A stretch of DNA of 64,000 nucleotides from Escherichia phage HK6, in the sequence record PP724615.1. The stretch is one strand, 5' to 3'. Shown in pieces: positions 20,037-58,230 of this stretch; the stretch's first letter is position 1; each line of letters begins with the position of its first letter. A program made the translations under genes and the position numbers. The notes below the pieces were generated by a model that was not told the DNA's origin, did no database searches, and saw only the letters and a list, made by a program, of their open reading frames with translations.

Positions 20037-20065
20037 TTGCTTTCAGGAAAATTTTTCTGTATAAT
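20037..20065 (+). promoter_or_regulatory. T5-type early promoter TTGCTT-N17-TATAAT
   Basis: Followed by 'CATAAATTTGAGAGAGGAG' and the ATG at 20097. Confidence 0.65.
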
Positions 20066-22337: not shown

Positions 22338-22610
22338 GTGAAAAAGATAAATATAAGTACACTTAAACCTTTCCCATATATCGGACAGCCTCTTATACTT
22401 ATGTGGGAGGAGAAGATTAATGGAGAAAAGTATACTAAAATTAGAAGTGGGTATAAGCTGATTTCACTTCATTACGAAAAAGAAGTATTAACAGCTGAAA
22501 TATACTCTCCATTATCAGATAGGCTAGTAAAAACCACGTATTTGCATCTCTGCAAAAATTTTACATGGCACGGATCCACTAGACAGCCCACGTACTATGA
22601 GGCAGAATAA
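22338..22610 (+). CDS. hypothetical protein (90 aa, GTG start)
   Basis: ORF ending with the TAA that overlaps the ligase A ATG (TAAATG). Confidence 0.4.
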   Translation: MKKINISTLKPFPYIGQPLILMWEEKINGEKYTKIRSGYKLISLHYEKEVLTAEIYSPLSDRLVKTTYLHLCKNFTWHGSTRQPTYYEAE

Positions 22611-23582
22611 ATGACTAATGTAAAAGACTTTATTAAACGTTGCCAAGAAGCGTATTACCAGGGAATGTCTTTAATCTCTGACGAAGAATATGATCGTCTG
22701 ATTAAAAGATTTCCGTTAGAAGAAGAGATCGGGCCTAAGGGCGATATTCCACATCTGTATCGTATGTATTCTTTACAGAAAGTTTATTATAATCGTGGAG
22801 ATAAACCTCCATTTAACCCATTAGGTCAGGTAGAAACTGATAAGTTAGATGGTTGTGCGATTTCTCTGTTATATATTAATGGAGAATTTGTTCAAGCACT
22901 AACTCGTGGTAATGGTATTCTAGGGAATGATGTCACAAGCAACGTAAGATTGCTGAACATCCCTAAAAAGATTTCCCAAAAAGTACCTACTCAAATCACT
23001 GGTGAAGTTCTAATTACAAAAGAAGTAGAAAATAAACGTAACTTTGCCTCTGGTGCTATTAACCTCAAAGATAGTGATGATTTCGTACAACGTATCGGAG
23101 AAGGTGGTTTAATCTTCGTTGCATACGGTATCCAGTGTTCTGCTGAATCTGTAGGTATTACAGAAGCATATTTAAAAGATATGCTTTGGCTAGAGAATGA
23201 GGACTTCTTAACAGTTGTTAATGTGCGTTCCTTCTTTAAATGGATTCCGACGGACGGTAAAGTTGTTCGTATTAATGATAACAACAAATTCTTTCGTGAA
23301 GGCTGGACTAATAAATTTCCTCGTGGCGCATTCGCTATTAAAGAAGATGAAGAAGGCGAAATTACAACTCTTACTAAAGTTGAATGGCAGGTAGGGGCTT
23401 CTGGTAAAGTAACTCCAGTTGGTTATTTCGAACCGGTAATTATTGATGATGCTACAATTGTTAAGGCGACTCTTAATAACGTTGATTATATTAACTCTCT
23501 TGATCTAGAGATCGGTTGCCAGATTCGAGTAATTCGTGCTGGTGGTGTGATCCCGTGCATAGTAGAGCGAGTATACGATTAA
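22611..23582 (+). CDS. NAD-dependent DNA ligase, subunit A (adenylation domain)
   Basis: Adenylation motif 'ETDKLDGCAISLLY' (KxDG) and a LigA Ia/NTase-like N-terminal half. 323 aa, no OB/Zn/BRCT domains. Confidence 0.75.
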   Translation: MTNVKDFIKRCQEAYYQGMSLISDEEYDRLIKRFPLEEEIGPKGDIPHLYRMYSLQKVYYNRGDKPPFNPLGQVETDKLDGCAISLLYINGEFVQALTRGNGILGNDVTSNVRLLNIPKKISQKVPTQITGEVLITKEVENKRNFASGAINLKDSDDFVQRIGEGGLIFVAYGIQCSAESVGITEAYLKDMLWLENEDFLTVVNVRSFFKWIPTDGKVVRINDNNKFFREGWTNKFPRGAFAIKEDEEGEITTLTKVEWQVGASGKVTPVGYFEPVIIDDATIVKATLNNVDYINSLDLEIGCQIRVIRAGGVIPCIVERVYD

Positions 23583-23632
23583 TACATAACCCTTTGCTAC
23601 CCATCTACCATATCGGAATTATAAAGTGGTTA

Positions 23633-23661
23633 TTGACATTTTCGCCGCTTAGGTATATACT
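23633..23661 (+). promoter_or_regulatory. sigma70 promoter TTGACA-N17-TATACT
   Basis: Sits in the ligA-ligB spacer and is followed by an 11-codon mini-ORF. Confidence 0.5.
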
Positions 23662-23725
23662 ATTATCATTCAGTTGAGGGATAGAAAGTTATGGCGAGGG
23701 TAAGCAAAGTTAGTTAAAATTGTAG

Positions 23726-23754
23726 TTGCTAAATGCTTAAATACTTGCTATAAT
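23726..23754 (+). promoter_or_regulatory. T5-type early promoter TTGCTA-N17-TATAAT
   Basis: Followed by 'ATTTATATAAATTGATAAGGAAG' and the ATG at 23782. Confidence 0.6.
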
Positions 23755-23781
23755 ATTTATATAAATTGATAAGGAAGAAAT

Positions 23782-24564
23782 TTGATGAAAATCGAAATTC
23801 CAACACAATGTCCCTCTTGTGGTTCTAAGCTAGATCTTGTCAACGGACAATTATTCTGTAGGAATAAGTCCAACTGTCCAGCGCAATCAAGTAAGTTAAT
23901 TGAGAACTTCTGTTCAAAAATGAAGTTAAAGGGCTTTGGCCCAAAAACTATTGAGAAGCTGGAGCTGACGAAGATTTCAGAACTATTTTACCTAACCGAA
24001 GAAGATTTGGTTAGAGCCGTGGGTAGCAAGGTTGCCGCTAAGTTAATTAGCGAATTAAATACTAAAGTTCGCGGAGGCATTGACTTTGGTTCAGTTCTCG
24101 GTTCTTTAGGAATCCCTCTAATTGGAGAGGTTGCAGCAAAGAAATTATCCCAAAATTGCACTAGCTTCCACGATGTGAAGGCTGACGGCAAGGCTGGAGA
24201 AAACTATAAAGCCTGGCTAAATTCCCCACAAGGCAAGGATGTTATCGAACTACCGTGGAAATTCTCAACTGGTATTAAGGGCACTAAAGCCGACATCATC
24301 ATTACAGATGAGTTAGTTGCCCAGCCAAATGGAATCGCGGTATGTATTACCGGATCTTTGCAAGATTTTGCAAATCGAACGGATGCAACAAACTATTTAG
24401 AGAGTCTAGGATATACGGTTAAGAAATCCGTTACCAAAGACGTCAAATACCTAATCTGTGAGGATGAATCAAAACGTTCTTCCTCATCTTATAAGAAAGC
24501 CGAAACGAATGGGATAGAAATCCTGTCGATTAAAGAACTATTGGAGAAAAATAATAATGTCTAA
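23782..24564 (+). CDS. NAD-dependent DNA ligase, subunit B (Zn-finger/HhH/BRCT half)
   Basis: 'CPSCGSKL....C.N...CPAQ' Zn ribbon, HhH-like 'GFGPKTIEKL', and a C-terminal BRCT-like 'ICITGSL...YLICED'. 260 aa. Confidence 0.7.
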   Translation: MMKIEIPTQCPSCGSKLDLVNGQLFCRNKSNCPAQSSKLIENFCSKMKLKGFGPKTIEKLELTKISELFYLTEEDLVRAVGSKVAAKLISELNTKVRGGIDFGSVLGSLGIPLIGEVAAKKLSQNCTSFHDVKADGKAGENYKAWLNSPQGKDVIELPWKFSTGIKGTKADIIITDELVAQPNGIAVCITGSLQDFANRTDATNYLESLGYTVKKSVTKDVKYLICEDESKRSSSSYKKAETNGIEILSIKELLEKNNNV

Positions 24565-25324
24565 ACTGAACTGGAACGTAGAAGGTGTAACCGAGTCTCT
24601 GAAAGCAAAAGCCACTGCTCTGGGTGTTGCTGTAATCTCTCAAGAACAAGTAGCTGCTATCGCTGCTGAACTGGCTGCTGAAACTGGCAAAGATGTTACT
24701 GCTCGCTCTGTTGGCTCTAAACTGCGTAAAGAAGGTTTTGAAGTACAGAAAGCTAACGAAGTGCAGAAATCTCCGTGGACTCCTGAGCAGGAAGCTGAAC
24801 TGGTTGATTTCCTGAACGCTCATGCTGGTCAGTATACCTATGCTGAAATCGCTGCTGCTGTAGCTGGTGGTCAGTTCGGTGCTAAACAGGTACAGGGTAA
24901 GATCCTGAGTCTGGAAATGACCGCTTCTGTTAAACCAACTGAAAAAGCTGCTGCTGTTCGTTCCTTCACTCCGGATGAAGAAACTGATTTTGTTAATCAG
25001 GTTGTTGCTGGTGCTACTATTGAAGCTATCGCTGCTCACTTCGGTCGCAATATTAAGCAGATCCGTGGTAAAGCTCTGAGCCTGCTTCGTGAAGGTCGTA
25101 TTGCTGCTATGCCGGTACAGGAAACTTCAAGTGCTAAAACTCGTGAAGATCTGTTAGAAGGTCTAGATCTGGTTAACATGACTGTTGCTGAGATCGCTGA
25201 GAAAACCGGTAAGTCTGAGCGTGGTGTTAAATCTATGCTGTCTCGTCGTGGTCTGGTTGCTAAGGACTATGATGGTGCCGCTAAGCGTGCTAAACTGGAT
25301 GCAAAAGCTGCGGCTGCTGAATAA
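24557..25324 (+). CDS. Ala-rich protein with four sigma-region-4-like HTH repeats (255 aa)
   Basis: Four repeats of (T/V).AEIA....G.......(I/V)...L.....G, for example 'TIEAIAAHFGRNIKQIRGKALSLLREGRI'. Strong E. coli-optimal codon bias (GCT, CTG, CGT, GGT). Confidence 0.6.
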   Translation: MSKLNWNVEGVTESLKAKATALGVAVISQEQVAAIAAELAAETGKDVTARSVGSKLRKEGFEVQKANEVQKSPWTPEQEAELVDFLNAHAGQYTYAEIAAAVAGGQFGAKQVQGKILSLEMTASVKPTEKAAAVRSFTPDEETDFVNQVVAGATIEAIAAHFGRNIKQIRGKALSLLREGRIAAMPVQETSSAKTREDLLEGLDLVNMTVAEIAEKTGKSERGVKSMLSRRGLVAKDYDGAAKRAKLDAKAAAAE

Positions 25325-25342
25325 TCTGGTAAATTAAACCTA

Positions 25343-25373
25343 AGGGGAGGGGGCTATGCTCCTTCCCCTTTTT
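25343..25373 (+). terminator. rho-independent terminator
   Basis: GGGGAGGGGGC-TATG-CTCCTTCCCC hairpin followed by TTTTT. Confidence 0.6.
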
Positions 25374-25406
25374 GCATTTAGAAGGCACGAAAGCGTGCAA
25401 AGGAGA

Positions 25407-26879
25407 ATGACCTTGTTTAACGTGCAAGCTGTAGTGTTGAAGATGCTTCTCGCTTCCGAACAGAAGCAAATAGCATTGGAAACATTCTCAAAACTGCATA
25501 AAGATCATTTTAATGACGCTTTCTCCTCAATTTACCAAGCCGTCCAGAATTATTATAAAAAATATAACACAATGCCGTCCATTGACGCACTTATGCTTGA
25601 AGCTAATAGGAACGCCCGCCTTTCTCAAGCTCTAGTCGTCTTAGCTAACACTCAAATTCCAGAAGTGAGCATGGAACAGGCACTTGAAGTCCTAGAGGCC
25701 GAATATACACAGGATTTATTCCTGAAGCTTCTAGAAACAGACGTGCTTCAAGATTTAACAATGCTGGATCAGGGAGAAATTCTCAACCGAGTTGCCTCCC
25801 TTCACTTAAAATTAGAAGAGAAAGTAACGAATACTGGAAAAGTATTCAACGCAGATAACATGCGTATTTTCCAGAGAGAAGAAGATACCAAACTGAACTT
25901 AATCGCTCTTGGTATTTGTAATGAGTTCGACGCTCAAATTGGTTTAGCTCGCACAGAAACGTTACTGCTTGGTGGTTGGCGTGGTACTGGTAAATCCATT
26001 ATCTGTTCAAACATACAGGTTCAGCAATATTTGAATGGGGATATTGCTCCATACTTCTCAATTGAGATGAAAGAACATGAAGTATTTAGACGTAATCTAG
26101 CCATGTTAGCTGGTGTATCAGCATTAGCAATGCGTAATAATACTCTAGAAGGTGCAGCTCTATTAAGATTAGCCAGAACTAGAGCTAGAATGTTTAATGG
26201 TGGTGAAGAGCTTTTCGATAACTTCGTTAAACAGTACACAATGGCTAAGATGAGTGATTTCTACGATATGGAGAGTAAACTAATAGAAGGGTATGAGCTA
26301 CATACTCCTATGATTATTGTTTATGACCCTGAGCTGTCTATTACAACAGTTGACGTAGAATTAAATAAATTAGTTGCTAGATATGGAGATAAAGTTACAG
26401 TAGCTTTACTGGACTATATTAACCAAACCCGACTTCCAGATTCTAAAACCATTGATATGTATGACTGGAAAGAACAGATGGTTGTTAGCTCGTCTTTCAA
26501 ATCTATCTGCCAGAAACATAACGTGGCTGGTGTAGCTCCTTACCAGATCGATCAAGATGGTAGAACACGTATGTCAAAGGGGATTCTTGATTCCGCAGAC
26601 ATGGCTGCTAATCTTAATGCTGCAAAAGCTGATAATGGTCAAGGTGCTATTATGTTTGACTTCGTTAAGACTCGTTCTTCTGATAGCGTGAAGTTTATGC
26701 CTAAAATGAACTGGGAAACTCTGCGAATGGATAACACTACCAACCTAGCAATGGAAGATATATCTCAAATGGAAGCTGAGTTCGTTATCCCTATTGAGAA
26801 GGATAAGCCGGCTCAACCTAAACGTGCTAAGAAAGACAAAACTGAAAATTCAACAGGTGAACAGGCCAGCGATATATGA
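25407..26879 (+). CDS. DnaB-like replicative helicase
   Basis: RecA-like C-terminal domain with Walker A 'GGWRGTGKS' and an N-terminal helical domain. Start at 'MTLFNV' with an AAAGGAGA RBS. The track start at 25356 lies inside the terminator. Confidence 0.65.
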   Translation: MTLFNVQAVVLKMLLASEQKQIALETFSKLHKDHFNDAFSSIYQAVQNYYKKYNTMPSIDALMLEANRNARLSQALVVLANTQIPEVSMEQALEVLEAEYTQDLFLKLLETDVLQDLTMLDQGEILNRVASLHLKLEEKVTNTGKVFNADNMRIFQREEDTKLNLIALGICNEFDAQIGLARTETLLLGGWRGTGKSIICSNIQVQQYLNGDIAPYFSIEMKEHEVFRRNLAMLAGVSALAMRNNTLEGAALLRLARTRARMFNGGEELFDNFVKQYTMAKMSDFYDMESKLIEGYELHTPMIIVYDPELSITTVDVELNKLVARYGDKVTVALLDYINQTRLPDSKTIDMYDWKEQMVVSSSFKSICQKHNVAGVAPYQIDQDGRTRMSKGILDSADMAANLNAAKADNGQGAIMFDFVKTRSSDSVKFMPKMNWETLRMDNTTNLAMEDISQMEAEFVIPIEKDKPAQPKRAKKDKTENSTGEQASDI

Positions 26880-27766
26880 GTAGAATAACAGAACTACTTG
26901 ATCTGAAAGGCATTGAATATAAAGACACAGGTGGGGACATCCTCATCTGTTGTCTCAATCCAGATCATGACGATAAACACCCAAGTTTGCGTATTGATCC
27001 TGAAACAGGTATTATGCACTGCTTGAGTTGTGGCTTCGGTAAAGGTATACCGAGCATTTACCATTATTTTAATGAGACTCAGTACAGACAGTCCCCAAGG
27101 CTATCGCAAGTACGCAAAAAGATTTCAGAGATTAGGAATGGATCAACGAATCTTGCAATTCCTGAATCTGCTTACCTTTTCGAAGGTGATTTCCGAGGTA
27201 TAAGTTCTAAGACCTTGAAGAAATATTTTGCTTTCCAACACCAAGCAGACTGGGAAGGCAGAATTGTATTCCCAATCACAGATGCTGTTGGACGCAATAT
27301 CCTATTTTTGGGTCGTTCTATAAACAGTTCTGCCCCTCCTAAATACTTAGTAAAACCAAAACAAGTTTCACCGCCGATTTTCCCTGTACGATATAATACT
27401 CCAGTGCTTATTCTAGTTGAAGGTATCTTTGATATGCTGAACCTAGAGGATAATGGTATAGACTATGCTTCTTGCTGCTTTGGTACACATCAGTTCACTT
27501 CAGATAACATTGCAGATAAGTTCAGTCCTTATATTATTGCTGGTGTAAAAGTTGTTGTTATCTTACTAGATAATGATGCTTCTGGTAATAAAGCTGCACA
27601 AGCGTTGGCCAAGCTAATTCGTACAAAAACGCGTTTAACACCTGTAGTTGCTAACTTTCTCCTACCTGAAGGCAAAGATCCAGGTGAGTTAAACAAAGAT
27701 GAAATTGATATGTTAGCAAAACGTATTGAAATTTTAGTTGCTGAATCGCTTAAAGATTTGGTATAA
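26876..27766 (+). CDS. DNA primase (DnaG-like)
   Basis: CHC2 Zn finger 'CCLNPDHDDKHPS....CLSCG' and Toprim 'ILVEGIFDM...LLDNDASG'. 296 aa. Confidence 0.8.
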   Translation: MSRITELLDLKGIEYKDTGGDILICCLNPDHDDKHPSLRIDPETGIMHCLSCGFGKGIPSIYHYFNETQYRQSPRLSQVRKKISEIRNGSTNLAIPESAYLFEGDFRGISSKTLKKYFAFQHQADWEGRIVFPITDAVGRNILFLGRSINSSAPPKYLVKPKQVSPPIFPVRYNTPVLILVEGIFDMLNLEDNGIDYASCCFGTHQFTSDNIADKFSPYIIAGVKVVVILLDNDASGNKAAQALAKLIRTKTRLTPVVANFLLPEGKDPGELNKDEIDMLAKRIEILVAESLKDLV

Positions 27767-27828: not shown

Positions 27829-30396
27829 TTGAAAATCGCAGTAGTTGATAAAGCTCTAAATAACACTCGTTATGATAAACATTTCCAGCTATACGGCGAG
27901 GAAGTTGATGTATTCCATATGTGTAACGAGAAGTTATCTGGTCGTTTGCTTAAAAAGCACATTACTATTGGAACACCAGAAAACCCATTTGATCCGAATG
28001 ATTATGATTTTGTTATACTAGTAGGTGCTGAACCTTTCCTGTATTTCGCAGGTAAGAAAGGCATTGGTGACTATACTGGTAAACGTGTAGAGTATAATGG
28101 ATATGCTAACTGGATTGCGAGTATCAGCCCAGCCCAGTTACACTTTAAACCTGAAATGAAACCAGTTTTTGATGCAACAGTAGAGAATATCCACGATATT
28201 ATCAATGGTCGTGAGAAGATTGCAAAAGCTGGTGATTACCGTCCTATTACTGACCCTGACGAGGCGGAAGAATATATCAAGATGGTGTATAATATGGTTA
28301 TCGGACCTGTAGCATTCGACTCCGAAACCTCAGCACTATACTGTCGAGATGGTTATCTGCTTGGTGTTTCTATGTCTCACCAAGAGTATCAGGGTGTGTA
28401 TATCGATTCTGATTGCCTCACAGAGGTTGCAGTATATTATCTCCAGAAAATTCTGGATAGTGAAAATCACACTATTGTTTTTCACAACCTGAAGTTTGAT
28501 ATGCACTTTTATAAGTACCATCTGGGACTTACTTTTGACAAAGCACATAAAGAACGCAGGCTCCATGATACCATGTTGCAGCATTATGTTCTGGATGAGC
28601 GTCGTGGTACTCATGGCTTGAAATCTCTAGCAATGAAGTATACCGATATGGGTGACTATGACTTTGAACTAGATAAGTTCAAGGAGGATTACTGCAAAGC
28701 ACATAAAATCAAGAAAGAAGATTTCACTTATGATTTAATTCCGTTTGATATTATGTGGCCTTACGCTGCAAAAGATACCGATGCCACCATACGTTTGCAC
28801 AATTTCTTCTTACCAAAAATTGAGAAGAATGAAAAACTTTGCAGTCTGTATTATGATGTTCTAATGCCTGGTTGTGTATTTCTCCAGCGTGTTGAGGATC
28901 GTGGTGTACCAATTTCTATTGATCGCTTGAAAGAAGCTCAGTATCAGTTAACTCATAATCTGAATAAAGCTCGTGAGAAGCTGTATACTTATCCAGAAGT
29001 CGTTCAGCTAGAGAAAGATCAGAACGAAGCGTTTAACCCAAACTCTGTTAAACAACTCCGTGTTCTTCTGTTTGATTATGTTGGCTTAACTCCAACAGGT
29101 AAATTGACGGATACTGGAGCAGACTCTACAGATGCAGAGGCTTTGAACGAATTGTCTACGCAGCATCCAATTGCTAAGACTCTACTAGAAATTCGTAAGC
29201 TGACTAAGCTGATCTCTACTTATGTTGAGAAGATTCTTCTGAGTATTGATGCAGATGGTTGCATTCGTACTGGCTTCCATGAACACATGACTACTTCTGG
29301 TCGTCTGAGTTCTTCTGGTAAACTGAACCTGCAACAGTTACCTCGTGATGAATCTATTATCAAGGGTTGTGTAGTAGCTCCTCCCGGGTATCGTGTAATC
29401 GCATGGGACTTAACAACTGCGGAAGTTTATTATGCTGCTGTTCTATCTGGTGATAGAAATATGCAACAGGTATTTATCAACATGAGAAATGAACCTGATA
29501 AATACCCTGACTTCCACTCTAACATCGCACACATGGTATTTAAGCTCCAATGCGAACCTCGTGATGTTAAAAAGTTGTTCCCAGCTCTGCGTCAGGCTGC
29601 TAAGGCAATTACCTTTGGTATTTTGTATGGTTCTGGCCCGGCTAAAGTAGCTCATTCTGTTAATGAAGCTCTTCTGGAACAAGCTGCTAAGACAGGCGAA
29701 CCGTTTGTAGAATGTACTGTTGCAGATGCTAAAGAGTACATTGAAACTTATTTCGGTCAGTTCCCGCAGCTTAAGCGTTGGATTGATAAGTGCCACGATC
29801 AAATCAAGAATCATGGGTTTATCTATAGTCACTTTGGGCGTAAACGTCGTCTGCATAATATCCACTCCGAAGACCGTGGTGTTCAGGGTGAAGAAATTCG
29901 TTCTGGATTTAACGCAATCATTCAGTCTGCTTCCTCTGATAGCCTCCTTTTAGGTGCTGTAGATGCAGATAATGAGATCATTTCTCTTGGCCTAGAACAA
30001 GAGATGAAGATTGTTATGCTGGTTCATGACTCCGTAGTTGCTATTGTTCGTGAGGATTTGATTGATCAATACAATGAAATCCTGATTCGTAATATCCAAA
30101 AAGACCGTGGTATCAGTATTCCTGGCTGTCCGATTGGTATTGATTCTGATTCTGAAGCTGGAGGTTCTCGTGACTACTCTTGTGGTAAGATGAAGAAGCA
30201 GCATCCATCAATCGCTTGTATTGATGATGATGAATATACTCGTTATGTCAAGGGTGTATTACTTGACGCAGAATTCGAGTATAAGAAACTAGCTGCAATG
30301 GATAAAGAGCATCCAGATCATAGCAAATACAAGGATGATAAGTTTATTGCTGTATGTAAAGATTTGGATAACGTGAGAAGGATTCTCGGTGCTTGA
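27829..30396 (+). CDS. DNA polymerase (family A) with 3'-5' exonuclease
   Basis: Exo I 'VAFDSETSALY'. Pol motifs 'DLTTAEVYY', 'RQAAKAITFGILYG' (motif B) and 'LVHDSVV' (motif C). 855 aa, the same length as the T5 polymerase. TTG start 6 nt after AGAGGAGA. Confidence 0.9.
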   Translation: MKIAVVDKALNNTRYDKHFQLYGEEVDVFHMCNEKLSGRLLKKHITIGTPENPFDPNDYDFVILVGAEPFLYFAGKKGIGDYTGKRVEYNGYANWIASISPAQLHFKPEMKPVFDATVENIHDIINGREKIAKAGDYRPITDPDEAEEYIKMVYNMVIGPVAFDSETSALYCRDGYLLGVSMSHQEYQGVYIDSDCLTEVAVYYLQKILDSENHTIVFHNLKFDMHFYKYHLGLTFDKAHKERRLHDTMLQHYVLDERRGTHGLKSLAMKYTDMGDYDFELDKFKEDYCKAHKIKKEDFTYDLIPFDIMWPYAAKDTDATIRLHNFFLPKIEKNEKLCSLYYDVLMPGCVFLQRVEDRGVPISIDRLKEAQYQLTHNLNKAREKLYTYPEVVQLEKDQNEAFNPNSVKQLRVLLFDYVGLTPTGKLTDTGADSTDAEALNELSTQHPIAKTLLEIRKLTKLISTYVEKILLSIDADGCIRTGFHEHMTTSGRLSSSGKLNLQQLPRDESIIKGCVVAPPGYRVIAWDLTTAEVYYAAVLSGDRNMQQVFINMRNEPDKYPDFHSNIAHMVFKLQCEPRDVKKLFPALRQAAKAITFGILYGSGPAKVAHSVNEALLEQAAKTGEPFVECTVADAKEYIETYFGQFPQLKRWIDKCHDQIKNHGFIYSHFGRKRRLHNIHSEDRGVQGEEIRSGFNAIIQSASSDSLLLGAVDADNEIISLGLEQEMKIVMLVHDSVVAIVREDLIDQYNEILIRNIQKDRGISIPGCPIGIDSDSEAGGSRDYSCGKMKKQHPSIACIDDDEYTRYVKGVLLDAEFEYKKLAAMDKEHPDHSKYKDDKFIAVCKDLDNVRRILGA

Positions 30397-56853: not shown

Positions 56854-58230
56854 TTAAGATGCAGCGTAAGCACCAGATACAACGCCATTATTAAAGTAAC
56901 GTTGCAGGTTAACACGCTGAGTAACGTAGTACGCATCACGCTGTTTACCAGCTTGGCGCTCACGTTCAACAGTAACAGCACGCTGACGCGGCATTACGAA
57001 GTTATCTTTATAAACAATAACTGCGAACTCTGCAGAGTTAGCTTTAGCCGGGAAGAACTCAGAAACTACAACCGGCAAACCGTAAATACGACCAACCTGA
57101 CCTTGCAGTTTAACAGCATCATTACCAACCTGGGCAACATCCTGCCATTCTTCATCTTCCAGCAAATCGTAATAAGCATCCATAGATACGATCAGTACCA
57201 GTTTGCTCAGTTTCAGACCATGACGGCCCAGTTTACGACGCAGTTTAGAGATAGTTTTAGCAGTTACCAGAACAGAACCATCAGCTTTAGCTTCAGTAAT
57301 AACTTTAGCACTATCGCCTTCAGCCAGTTTCAGCAGACCCTTAGGCTTACCAGTACCGTCACCCGTCATAAACGCTTCTTCGATAGAAACAGCGTGTGCT
57401 TCAATCAGACGCTTACGCAGCAGAGGTAGCAGGGAGAAGATTGCATCTTCTTCAGTTTCATCAGTAATGAAGGACTTAGCAGCCAGTTTATAGGTTTTGA
57501 ACTGAATTTCAGTCAGAGCACCTTTAACTTCGTCACCAGTAGTAGTGTCAGTACCATATGCACTAGCATCTACCCAAGTAGCTTTACCAGCATCTGGTTC
57601 AACCAACATAGTAAGAATTTTGCTAGACATTGGCAGTTCTTCAAACAGAGCACCAACTACTAGTTCTTTCTGCAGGTCACGAATAATACGCTGGGAGAAA
57701 ATAGTTTCATAGCTTTCACTAGAAACTTCTACTGAAGAGGACTGGTTTACAGCTTTCAGGTGTCTCTGGCCATGTTCGGTATCAAATACACCTTTTTCCA
57801 TCACATAAGACAGAAGAACCAGTTTTTCAACTTCATCTTCAAAGTTTTCCTGAGTACCGTACAGTGCTTTAGCTACGCTATCACCAACGAAGGAACGACC
57901 TTCACGAGCTGCTAGCAGAGATTTAATTTCATCCTGGAGACCAACAATAGTTTCCTGCTGTTTTTCTACAGTCTGTGCAAACAGTTCTGCGCTCTTTTTA
58001 GATTTTTCATCCAGGGACTTAACCAGTTCCAGAGCTTGTTCCAGTTTCTGACGATCTTCGCCAACTGCTTTAGAAACCAGATCATTCATACGAGCCAGTT
58101 CTTTTTCTTCCTGCTCTTTACGCATACGTTCAGCTTCAGCAGCTTTCTGAGCAGCGGTCAGACCTTCCAGAGATTTAGCCAGATCACCCAGACCAAGTTC
58201 TTCTTTCAGCTTATTAATATCAATAGTCAT
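56854..58230 (-). CDS. major capsid protein pb8-like with N-terminal scaffolding delta-domain
   Basis: 458 aa, the same length as T5 pb8. N-terminal ~150 aa are coiled-coil (KLKEELGLG..., EKQQETIVGLQDEIKSL), followed by an HK97-like body. Confidence 0.8.
   Translation of the reverse strand: MTIDINKLKEELGLGDLAKSLEGLTAAQKAAEAERMRKEQEEKELARMNDLVSKAVGEDRQKLEQALELVKSLDEKSKKSAELFAQTVEKQQETIVGLQDEIKSLLAAREGRSFVGDSVAKALYGTQENFEDEVEKLVLLSYVMEKGVFDTEHGQRHLKAVNQSSSVEVSSESYETIFSQRIIRDLQKELVVGALFEELPMSSKILTMLVEPDAGKATWVDASAYGTDTTTGDEVKGALTEIQFKTYKLAAKSFITDETEEDAIFSLLPLLRKRLIEAHAVSIEEAFMTGDGTGKPKGLLKLAEGDSAKVITEAKADGSVLVTAKTISKLRRKLGRHGLKLSKLVLIVSMDAYYDLLEDEEWQDVAQVGNDAVKLQGQVGRIYGLPVVVSEFFPAKANSAEFAVIVYKDNFVMPRQRAVTVERERQAGKQRDAYYVTQRVNLQRYFNNGVVSGAYAAS

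Follow-up and report, generated by a model that had tools for sequence, protein, structure and literature searches.

An open reading frame (ORF) of Escherichia phage HK6 (sequence record PP724615.1) raises the question of whether this phage encodes a multi-copy mimic of a sigma factor domain, directed at the host RNA polymerase (RNAP), or a protein of another kind that works on the DNA template itself. The stretch of DNA here analysed, hereafter the window, comprises 64,000 nucleotides, and the ORF lies on its plus strand (24557..25324). Its translation gives exactly the 255-residue (aa) protein on which a preliminary description of this DNA had been based, with a mass of 27.0 kDa, a pI of 6.8 and no cysteine, and bears out the Ala-rich character assigned to it (45 of 255 residues). 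That description envisaged a highly expressed product built from four helix-turn-helix (HTH) repeats resembling region 4 of sigma factors. It is near-certain from the comparisons below that the ORF corresponds to the D5 gene of a T5-like phage, being the orthologue of T5 gene D5 (T5.118), and the best overall explanation of its product is probably that of an abundant protein of modular build, encoded in the T5 replication module, that binds duplex DNA and acts on the template.

The HK6 protein and T5.118 (YP_006946.1) are of equal length and align with 254 of 255 residues identical, the lone substitution from T5 to HK6 being D25 to A25. Both also share the location between ligB and D6 and the assignment to PHROG 323 ('transcriptional regulator, D5-like'), whose profile matches the HK6 product with E=1.5e-71 and covers aa 1-253. 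In the T5 record, T5.118 is described as 'DNA-binding protein; required for DNA replication and late transcription', a role in 'shutoff of expression' being also noted. Taken together, the near-identity to T5.118, the T5 record and the PHROG match indicate that the window represents the early-region part of a T5-like (Demerecviridae) genome. Matches to D5 DNA were obtained by megablast in 514 phage records, mostly with 95-99% identity and with Salmonella phages L6jm and EH7 as the closest (99.2%), while homologues with the same family signature occur in 902 phage records of ~100-126 kb each. The gene is annotated as 'D5 protein' or 'putative transcription factor D5' in several of the matching records.

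The preliminary description had not recognised the gene as the well-known D5. Knowledge of the gene, of the DNA binding and abundance of its product and of the regulatory phenotype goes back to the 1970s, D5 being essential both to replication of T5 and to its switch from early to late transcription; the gene, its binding and its abundance being textbook T5 biology, the present results add detail rather than discovery. The HTH content of D5 was already noted in a 2026 preprint (bioRxiv 10.64898/2026.07.11.737809), and the four tandem GcrA-like domains described below constitute a modest refinement, no prior statement of this kind having been found in the literature. These four modules nonetheless provide concrete recognition helices to mutate and a domain-by-domain view of DNA binding. 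A paper on DRT4 defence dealing with a 'T5 DNA-binding protein' was discarded as a source on D5, the protein there being ORF55, and the text of the CRISPRi-ART paper contains no statement on D5 fitness.

Internal repetition in D5 exceeds chance. The best off-diagonal Smith-Waterman score of the protein against itself is 77, compared with 38.2 +/- 7.7 for 100 composition-preserving shuffles of D5, none of which reached the observed value (z=5.1). An alignment of 34 homologues (50-80% identity) was cut into four units, and the resulting profiles were compared by hhalign: units 2 and 3 match with P=1.4e-9 (96% probability), units 3 and 4 with P=6.4e-5, units 1 and 4 with P=2.5e-4, and the rest of the pairs with P values from 2e-3 to 7e-3. 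Likewise, 64 unit sequences taken from 16 homologues were aligned by MAFFT, and the four units all fell into a single register. The AlphaFold2 (AF2) model of D5, run on the alignment, displays a mean predicted local distance difference test (pLDDT) value of 91.3, with helix 2 and helix 3 present at each of the four predicted sites, together with a predicted template modelling (pTM) score of only 0.47. This combination of values suggests that the domains are modelled with confidence and their mutual arrangement is not, as would fit modules on flexible linkers; the linkers between HTH units span 10-15 residues.

Thus, the four tandem repeats of the preliminary description are supported both by self-alignment and by the predicted helices at four sites, but not their proposed length of ~30 aa. 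The four strings that it listed, located at aa 32-61, 94-122, 154-182 and 209-235, correspond to the helix 2-turn-helix 3 portion, while the true repeat unit is of ~50-60 aa, with units 1-3 being three-helix domains. It comprises a further helix ahead of the HTH ('W/F-T/S-x-E-E-x-x-L'), which is clear in units 1-3, the corresponding segment of unit 4 being non-helical in the model. Repeats at the DNA level were not found within the D5 gene beyond GCT-rich low complexity. A recent duplication of the units was for this reason rejected, and the duplications that gave rise to them must be ancient.

The individual units are all encoded on the plus strand. Unit 1 (aa 1-68; 24557..24760) is modelled with helices at 11-22, 29-43 and 49-58 and carries the recognition-helix motif T-A-R-S-V-G-S-K-L-R-K-E-G-F, residues W6, R50, K55, L56 and R57 being invariant in the family alignment. 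In unit 2 (aa 69-130; 24761..24946; helices 76-88, 95-101 and 109-118), the motifs read P-W-T-P-E-Q-E...Y-A-E-I-A...K-Q-V-Q-G-K-I-L-S-L, with invariant Q113, G114, K115 and L117, and those of unit 3 (aa 131-187; 24947..25117; helices 139-150, 155-162 and 166-178) read S-F-T-P-D-E-E...I-E-A-I-A...K-Q-I-R-G-K-A-L-S-L. Unit 4 (aa 188-238; 25118..25270) has helices at 210-217 and 221-231, helix 1 being absent from its model; its motif is M-T-V-A-E-I-A-E-K-T-G-K-S-E-R-G-V-K-S-M-L-S-R-R-G-L, and G223, L228 and R231 are invariant. The protein ends in an amphipathic helix predicted by AF2 (aa 240-254, G-A-A-K-R-A-K-L-D-A-K...; 25271..25321), in whose region D237, G240, A241 and K246 are conserved throughout the family and which might serve as a protein-protein or cooperativity element. 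In general, recognition-helix residues are invariant among homologues of at least 50% identity.

The family to which these HTH units are closest was then evaluated at the level of sequence profiles and folds. Upon scanning whole D5 against Pfam, only Sigma70_r4_2 (PF08281) exceeded its gathering score (28.7 vs 25.7 bits), at aa 204-230 in unit 4. Sub-threshold matches were returned for Sigma70_r4 (PF04545, 17.4 vs 24.1), for Sigma70_r3 (20.6 vs 25.3 bits, on the same HTH as the r4 match), for Myb (PF00249, 17.6 vs 24.4 bits) and for HTH_23. Regions 2, 3 and 4.1 of sigma factors were not found in D5 with Pfam; in particular, Sigma70_r2 gave no match, and the AF2 model shows four small HTH units only. 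The NCBIfam scan yielded nothing above threshold, sigma70-ECF scoring 12.6 vs 42.9. When units were scanned one by one, only generic HTH families appeared, all below threshold except Sigma70_r4_2 in unit 4. Among the sub-threshold matches, that of whole D5 to Myb lies at aa 71-100 in unit 2, and HTH_23 and EutK_C fall in unit 3. Over the 64 unit sequences, Sigma70_r4_2 was matched 19 times, HTH_23 12, Myb_DNA-bind_6 9 and Sigma70_r4 8.

Profile comparisons pointed elsewhere. Seven reference HTH domains were tested by hhalign against the profile of stacked units, the sequence of the GcrA DNA-binding domain (DBD) being the one confirmed against the PDB. The best match was the GcrA DBD, with P=1.3e-7 (94% probability) over 41 columns, that is, over the whole domain. 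It was followed by RpoE region 4 (P=1.6e-4, 27 columns), GerE (P=7e-4, 25 columns), RpoD region 4 (P=1.7e-3, 28 columns) and Myb R2 (P=3.5e-3, 30 columns). In comparison with 120 shuffles per reference, the scores stood at z=14.5 for GcrA, 9.7 for RpoE region 4 and 6.9 for RpoD region 4, with 0/120 shuffles reaching the observed values. Each single unit also aligns to GcrA over 40-45 columns, with P values between 8e-6 and 8e-3 (P=2e-3 over 45 columns for unit 1), while unit 2 in addition resembles Myb R2 (P=3e-4). The statement that the third repeat is similar to region 4.2 of sigma70 agrees with these results, since unit 3 is indeed the one most like RpoD region 4 (P=3e-4; 5.7e-5 for RpoE region 4), although it is closer still to GcrA (P=8.2e-6). 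Similarly, the GcrA DBD is the top fold match, and region 4 is not the closest fold. The LuxR-type HTH, proposed for comparison, is represented here by GerE, whose match is weaker than that of the GcrA DBD.

Two other searches speak against GcrA. The Pfam family GcrA (PF07750) was not matched at E<=10 by whole D5 or by single units, and the 25 families with the most matches to the 64 unit sequences do not include it. When a hidden Markov model (HMM) of the stacked units was compared with PDB sequences, the real HTH matches were weak, with E=7e-5 for 2x48, 4e-3 for Timeless and only 0.13 for GcrA. Designed Ala/Glu-rich coiled coils ('EEIAQQLEE') dominated this last comparison and were treated as compositional false positives. 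Altogether, the D5 units belong to the three-helix HTH superfamily, with the GcrA DBD as their best-matching characterised domain. Their resemblance to sigma region 4 is genuine but confined to the HTH core; thus, the similarity underlying the preliminary description goes beyond composition, while the reading of the family as a region-4 mimic is not favoured. D5 as a true sigma factor or as an anti-sigma factor was rejected on the basis of the absent sigma regions and of the fold tests.

The comparison with GcrA from Caulobacter crescentus (PDB 5yiu / 7ye1) informs on which functions might be shared. Its N-terminal DBD is, like the D5 units, a compact three-helix HTH of ~45 residues, and both have in common a W-T-x-E start and a [TS]-[RK]-x-x-V-x-G-K-x-x-x-L-G recognition helix. 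GcrA works as a monomer, as a cofactor of sigma-70, and its DBD binds in the vicinity of promoters (PMC5887438, PMC9976885). In its crystal structure with DNA, helices 2 and 3 occupy the major groove, the backbone being contacted by W3, W15, S20-S22, T32, K39, H41 and R42, and the bases being read by R33, N34, I37, G38, H41 and R42 (PMC5887438). In the hhalign alignment, GcrA W3 falls on D5 W6 and GcrA K39 on D5 K55; when the same register is extended by eye, W74 occupies the W3 position, and G114-K115 and G171-K172 that of G38-K39. All these D5 residues (W6, K55, W74, G114-K115 and G171-K172) show little or no variation in the family alignment. On the contrary, the GcrA base readers R33, N34, I37, H41 and R42 are not conserved in the D5 units; the residues at base-reading positions differ among the four units and are conserved within each of them across homologues.

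In GcrA, one such domain is joined through a long linker to a zinc domain of the CCCH type, while D5 displays four domains, no Cys and no sigma-binding domain. Transcription activity of GcrA depends on that C-terminal zinc domain, which binds region 2 of sigma-70 (PMC5887438). In D5, Pfam and the AF2 model revealed no equivalent of the CCCH sigma-interacting domain, the sequence lacking cysteine and its C-terminus being the single conserved helix. A GcrA-type DBD without the zinc domain suggests that D5 shares GcrA's grip on DNA and not its grip on the polymerase.

Sigma-70 region 4 and the LuxR-GerE HTH share with D5 the helix 2-turn-helix 3 core beyond chance, but only ~27 columns align with region 4, the first helix of D5 is different (W-T-x-E-E) and region 4.1 is missing. 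In their design, small three-helix domains on flexible linkers with each domain reading one major groove, D5 and tandem HTH arrays such as Myb R1R2R3, SNAPc4 Myb, Timeless, Tc3/Pax and Cbp1 are alike; the Sulfolobus CRISPR-repeat-binding protein Cbp1 (2lvs) itself matches the GcrA DBD by sequence (E=1.2e-4). However, Myb repeats contain three regularly spaced Trp, a spacing not found in D5, whose two only Trp, W6 and W74, lie one each in units 1 and 2. In addition, arrays of the Myb, Timeless and Cbp1 type are sequence-specific and of low abundance, while D5 has been reported as an abundant general duplex binder. AsiA and MotA of T4 are, like D5, phage early proteins needed to shift sigma-70 RNAP between temporal gene classes. 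They act on sigma region 4 itself, while D5 gave no band in purified RNAP (see below), and no sequence or fold relation of D5 to them was found with Pfam, PHROG or the fold search.

Abundance of the protein is strongly indicated by its codons. GCT accounts for 40 of 45 Ala codons, CTG for 16 of 19 Leu, CGT for 10 of 12 Arg and GGT for 17 of 19 Gly. The codon adaptation index (CAI), computed with the Sharp & Li E. coli weights, is 0.709 for D5, which ranks 1/65 among the ORFs of the window (mean 0.283, standard deviation 0.109, z=3.9), and the second-highest value, 0.646, corresponds to a minus-strand ORF at 56854-58230, a putative major capsid gene. As a reference-free check, the effective number of codons (ENC) of D5 is 30.5, the lowest among the genes compared, and the gene has a GC content of 46.9% vs 39.2% for the window. 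The explanation of the bias as a mere effect of Ala-rich composition was rejected, the bias being also seen within Leu, Arg, Gly, Val, Thr and Ser and in the ENC. Thus, the claim of E. coli-optimal codons implying very high expression was well founded, and D5 has its codons tuned for the highest expression in the region. The homologue in Vibrio phage AG74 (5001-5765 of comparison segment L003) also presents the lowest ENC (31.1) of 11 neighbouring genes, but its preferred Leu codon is CTA (16/23), as compared with CTG in HK6. This lowest ENC attained with a different Leu codon points to strong selection for expression as a conserved property of D5, re-tuned to the host, and suggests that the bias tracks the host or a phage-encoded tRNA pool.

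D5 is classically a major early protein of T5. In agreement with this, mass spectrometry of purified particles of Yersinia phage phiR2-01 placed its homologue Gp110 with the most abundant proteins (PMC8624392). Although D5 is not a component of the T5 virion, its homologue may be present in those particles through carry-over with DNA or as a contaminant that reflects its abundance.

These features, considered together, shape how D5 might act on the template. The third helix of each unit would insert into the major groove, as suggested by the alignment of its conserved '[RK]-x-[VI]-x-G-K-x-x-x-L' motif with the recognition helix of GcrA, including the backbone-contacting K39. One monomer could in this way grip several successive grooves in a beads-on-string fashion, and many monomers would cooperatively coat the phage duplex DNA. 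By remodelling the template, such a coat would let replication go ahead, silence early promoters and open late ones to use, D5 being then an architectural, chromatin-like protein of the template and not a replacement for, or hijacker of, a part of RNAP. The coating mechanism stands, in our judgement, at about even chances. The classical work would be compatible with it: McCorquodale et al. in 1979, Rice et al. in 1979 in J Biol Chem and Fujimura and Roop in 1983 in J Virol reportedly described D5 as a protein of ~29 kDa that prefers duplex DNA and binds it cooperatively, and the latter two reports are said to have found this binding apparently sequence-independent. DNA binding and the need for D5 in replication, late transcription and early shut-off are taken from annotation and literature, whereas the present analysis shows which protein this is, how it is built, its expression signals and its conservation.

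Several points weigh against such a picture. The strict conservation of recognition-helix side chains would also be in keeping with sequence-specific recognition, and a coat without specificity may then be an oversimplification. D5 is moreover not basic, with its near-neutral pI and a net charge per unit from -2 to +1, an uncommon trait in a protein that only coats DNA. Late transcription might fail in D5 mutants as a secondary effect of blocked replication and not through a direct action on the template. Binding, specificity and cooperativity rest on a database note and on papers of 1979-1983, and Ficht and Moyer are said to have described in 1980 a T5 transcription-replication complex containing D5, which would allow a looser association with polymerases. 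In a variant reading, the four domains together recognise, in modular fashion, one specific feature that extends over ~30-40 bp of T5 DNA, for instance the TTGCT early promoters. It is regarded as quite improbable; if true, D5 would be the missing early-to-late switch and would found a new class among phage regulators, with several GcrA domains in one protein devoid of a sigma-binding module.

The alternatives that place D5 at promoter elements or at RNAP have to be weighed against this template-bound role. Along the lines of the preliminary description, a four-copy mimic of sigma-70 region 4 would either occlude the -35 TTGCTT elements of early promoters or dock, appropriator-like, on the RNAP beta-flap and thereby favour late promoters. 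The above-threshold Sigma70_r4_2 match in unit 4, the first rank of this family over the units and the better-than-shuffled similarity to RpoE and RpoD region 4 speak in its favour, and its presumed targets are real. The promoter family TTGCT-N17-19-TA[GT]AAT (TAKAAT in one-letter code) was found at 13 sites vs 0.73 expected in the window; all 13 sites lie at 1174-32348, within the first 33 kb of early genes and on either strand, and none was found in the late region of the window (39-64 kb). These sites are the known strong early sigma-70 promoters of T5, and the sequence at 20037-20065 is presumably that of the PN25 promoter. The genetic need for D5 in early shut-off and late transcription, according to the T5 record, also agrees with the role as a transcription switch then proposed, and how transcription in T5 passes from one gene class to the next was still described as unknown in a 2020 study (PMC7472727). 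However, in RNAP purified in that study from T5-infected cells at 3, 15 and 25 min, the only phage bands were gpA1, a fragment of the pb8 capsid protein and gpT5.026, with no 27-29 kDa band for D5 (PMC7472727). The absence of this band despite the expected abundance argues against a stable, polymerase-bound, appropriator-like complex, the earlier proposal of a region-4 mimic or appropriator being thus left without support; a salt-sensitive interaction between D5 and RNAP may nevertheless occur. The limitation of the region-4 match to a generic HTH core of 27-28 columns, the far better whole-domain match to the GcrA DBD and the lack of other sigma regions also count against the mimic. Base-reading residues that differ among the units make four identical -35 readers unlikely in turn, and the mimic as a whole is considered unlikely.

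The likeness to GcrA suggests a second RNAP-directed role, in which D5 would ride on the sigma-70 holoenzyme, read specific sites in the neighbourhood of late promoters, perhaps modified or nicked ones, and speed up open complex formation there. The GcrA DBD ranking first by fold as well as by profile, GcrA itself being a sigma-70 cofactor, and D5 being required for late transcription are all in line with it. But GcrA needs the zinc domain that D5 lacks, the Pfam family GcrA is not matched, D5 is absent from the RNAP preparations, and its extreme abundance would better suit a stoichiometric DNA coat, so this role appears highly improbable. A further possibility, which overlaps the template-bound role and is put forward tentatively as a minority view, is that of a replisome accessory: D5, on the duplex at or behind the primer terminus, would modulate polymerase, helicase and ligase, its effects on transcription being indirect. 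The ligase-helicase-primase-polymerase setting of the gene, kept in two Demerecviridae subfamilies, the annotation of D5 as required for replication, and the presence among its structural and sequence neighbours of the DBD of Timeless, a replisome protein with tandem Myb-like repeats, are consistent with such a function. In addition, Fujimura and Roop reportedly found in 1983 that T5 DNA polymerase is modulated in vitro by D5 when the latter is bound to the duplex. On the other side, the amount implied by the codon bias is far above replisome stoichiometry, and failure of early shut-off is not an obvious outcome of a replication block.

Selection acting on D5 in another context bears on its HTH surfaces. 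D5 is reported to be the trigger of the type IX retron-Kva2, and in an AlphaFold3 model its HTH is predicted to bind the stem-loop of the multicopy single-stranded DNA (msDNA), mimicking the winged-helix protein of the retron (bioRxiv 10.64898/2026.07.11.737809). Phages escaping this retron carry the D5 mutations G53D, W74*, V149I and G232D (bioRxiv 10.64898/2026.07.11.737809). In the family alignment, G53, in the recognition helix of unit 1, and G232, at the end of unit 4, are nearly invariant glycines, and their substitution in escape phages supports a functional role for the HTH surfaces affected. The mutation W74* (24776-24778 in the window) introduces a premature stop in a classically essential protein; the population may have been a mixed one, or else read-through or a shortened D5 may be enough for the phage.

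Regarding its genetic surroundings, D5 lies in the replication module, between ligB, encoding the B subunit of the nicotinamide adenine dinucleotide (NAD)-dependent ligase, and the DnaB-like D6 helicase, as in T5. The order in the window is ligA (22611-23582), ligB (23782-24564), D5, DnaB-like helicase (25356-26879), primase (26876-27766) and DNA polymerase (27829-30396), and comparison of annotations showed the same ligA-ligB-D5-helicase-primase-polymerase order in T5, EH7 and AG74. This last phage belongs to a different Demerecviridae subfamily, and synteny is kept there even though its D5 is only 48% identical.

Two sigma-70 promoter-like sites precede ligB on the plus strand. The first, TTGACA-17-TATACT (23633..23661), matches the consensus in 11/12 positions and would by its position be the T5 early promoter P-K 28b, upstream of ligB-D5. 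The second, TTGCTA-17-TATAAT with an extended-10 TG (23726..23754), would similarly be P-K 28a and is a member of the TTGCT family of early promoters. Both promoters, P-K 28b and 28a, are annotated in the T5 record in the equivalent gap between ligA and ligB. The gene for the second portion of the divided NAD-dependent DNA ligase, ligB (23782..24564, plus strand, from the ORF list and the T5 and EH7 annotations), forms a transcription unit with D5, its stop and the D5 start overlapping by 8 nt (ATGTCTAA). A GGAG Shine-Dalgarno core, read from the sequence at 24543..24546 (+), stands 10 nt upstream of the D5 ATG across an A-rich spacer. Downstream, the terminator scan located an intrinsic terminator-like hairpin (25342..25370, +), with a 13-bp stem, 8 GC pairs and a following T run, that closes the ligB-D5 unit. 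Promoters, overlap, Shine-Dalgarno core and terminator suggest that D5 is the final gene of a short, strongly promoted early operon.

The usual start of the D6 helicase, ATG 25356, falls inside the loop of this terminator hairpin. Alternative in-frame starts are GTG 25395 and ATG 25407, the latter with AAGGAG before it, and the annotated N-terminus of the helicase may thus be too long. Further downstream, the helicase and primase genes of the window overlap directly at 26876-26879, while T5 and EH7 carry the HNH homing endonuclease hegJ between them (comparison segments L002 9615-10148 and L001 8865-9398), and EH7 has one more extra ORF 5' of the helicase. The difference in the helicase-primase gap seems to reflect a presence/absence polymorphism of homing endonucleases.

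Upstream, the ligase is encoded in two parts over 22611-24564, ligA with 323 aa and ligB with 260 aa, separated by the ~200 bp that contain the two strong promoters. The split is kept in AG74, where two further genes, one of them DprA-like, are found between both halves. Directly upstream of ligA, the window presents a GTG-start ORF of 90 aa (22338-22610), at a position occupied in T5 by no more than a promoter gap of 88 bp and in EH7 by an ORF of 62 aa, and the ORF of the window is probably a variable small gene.

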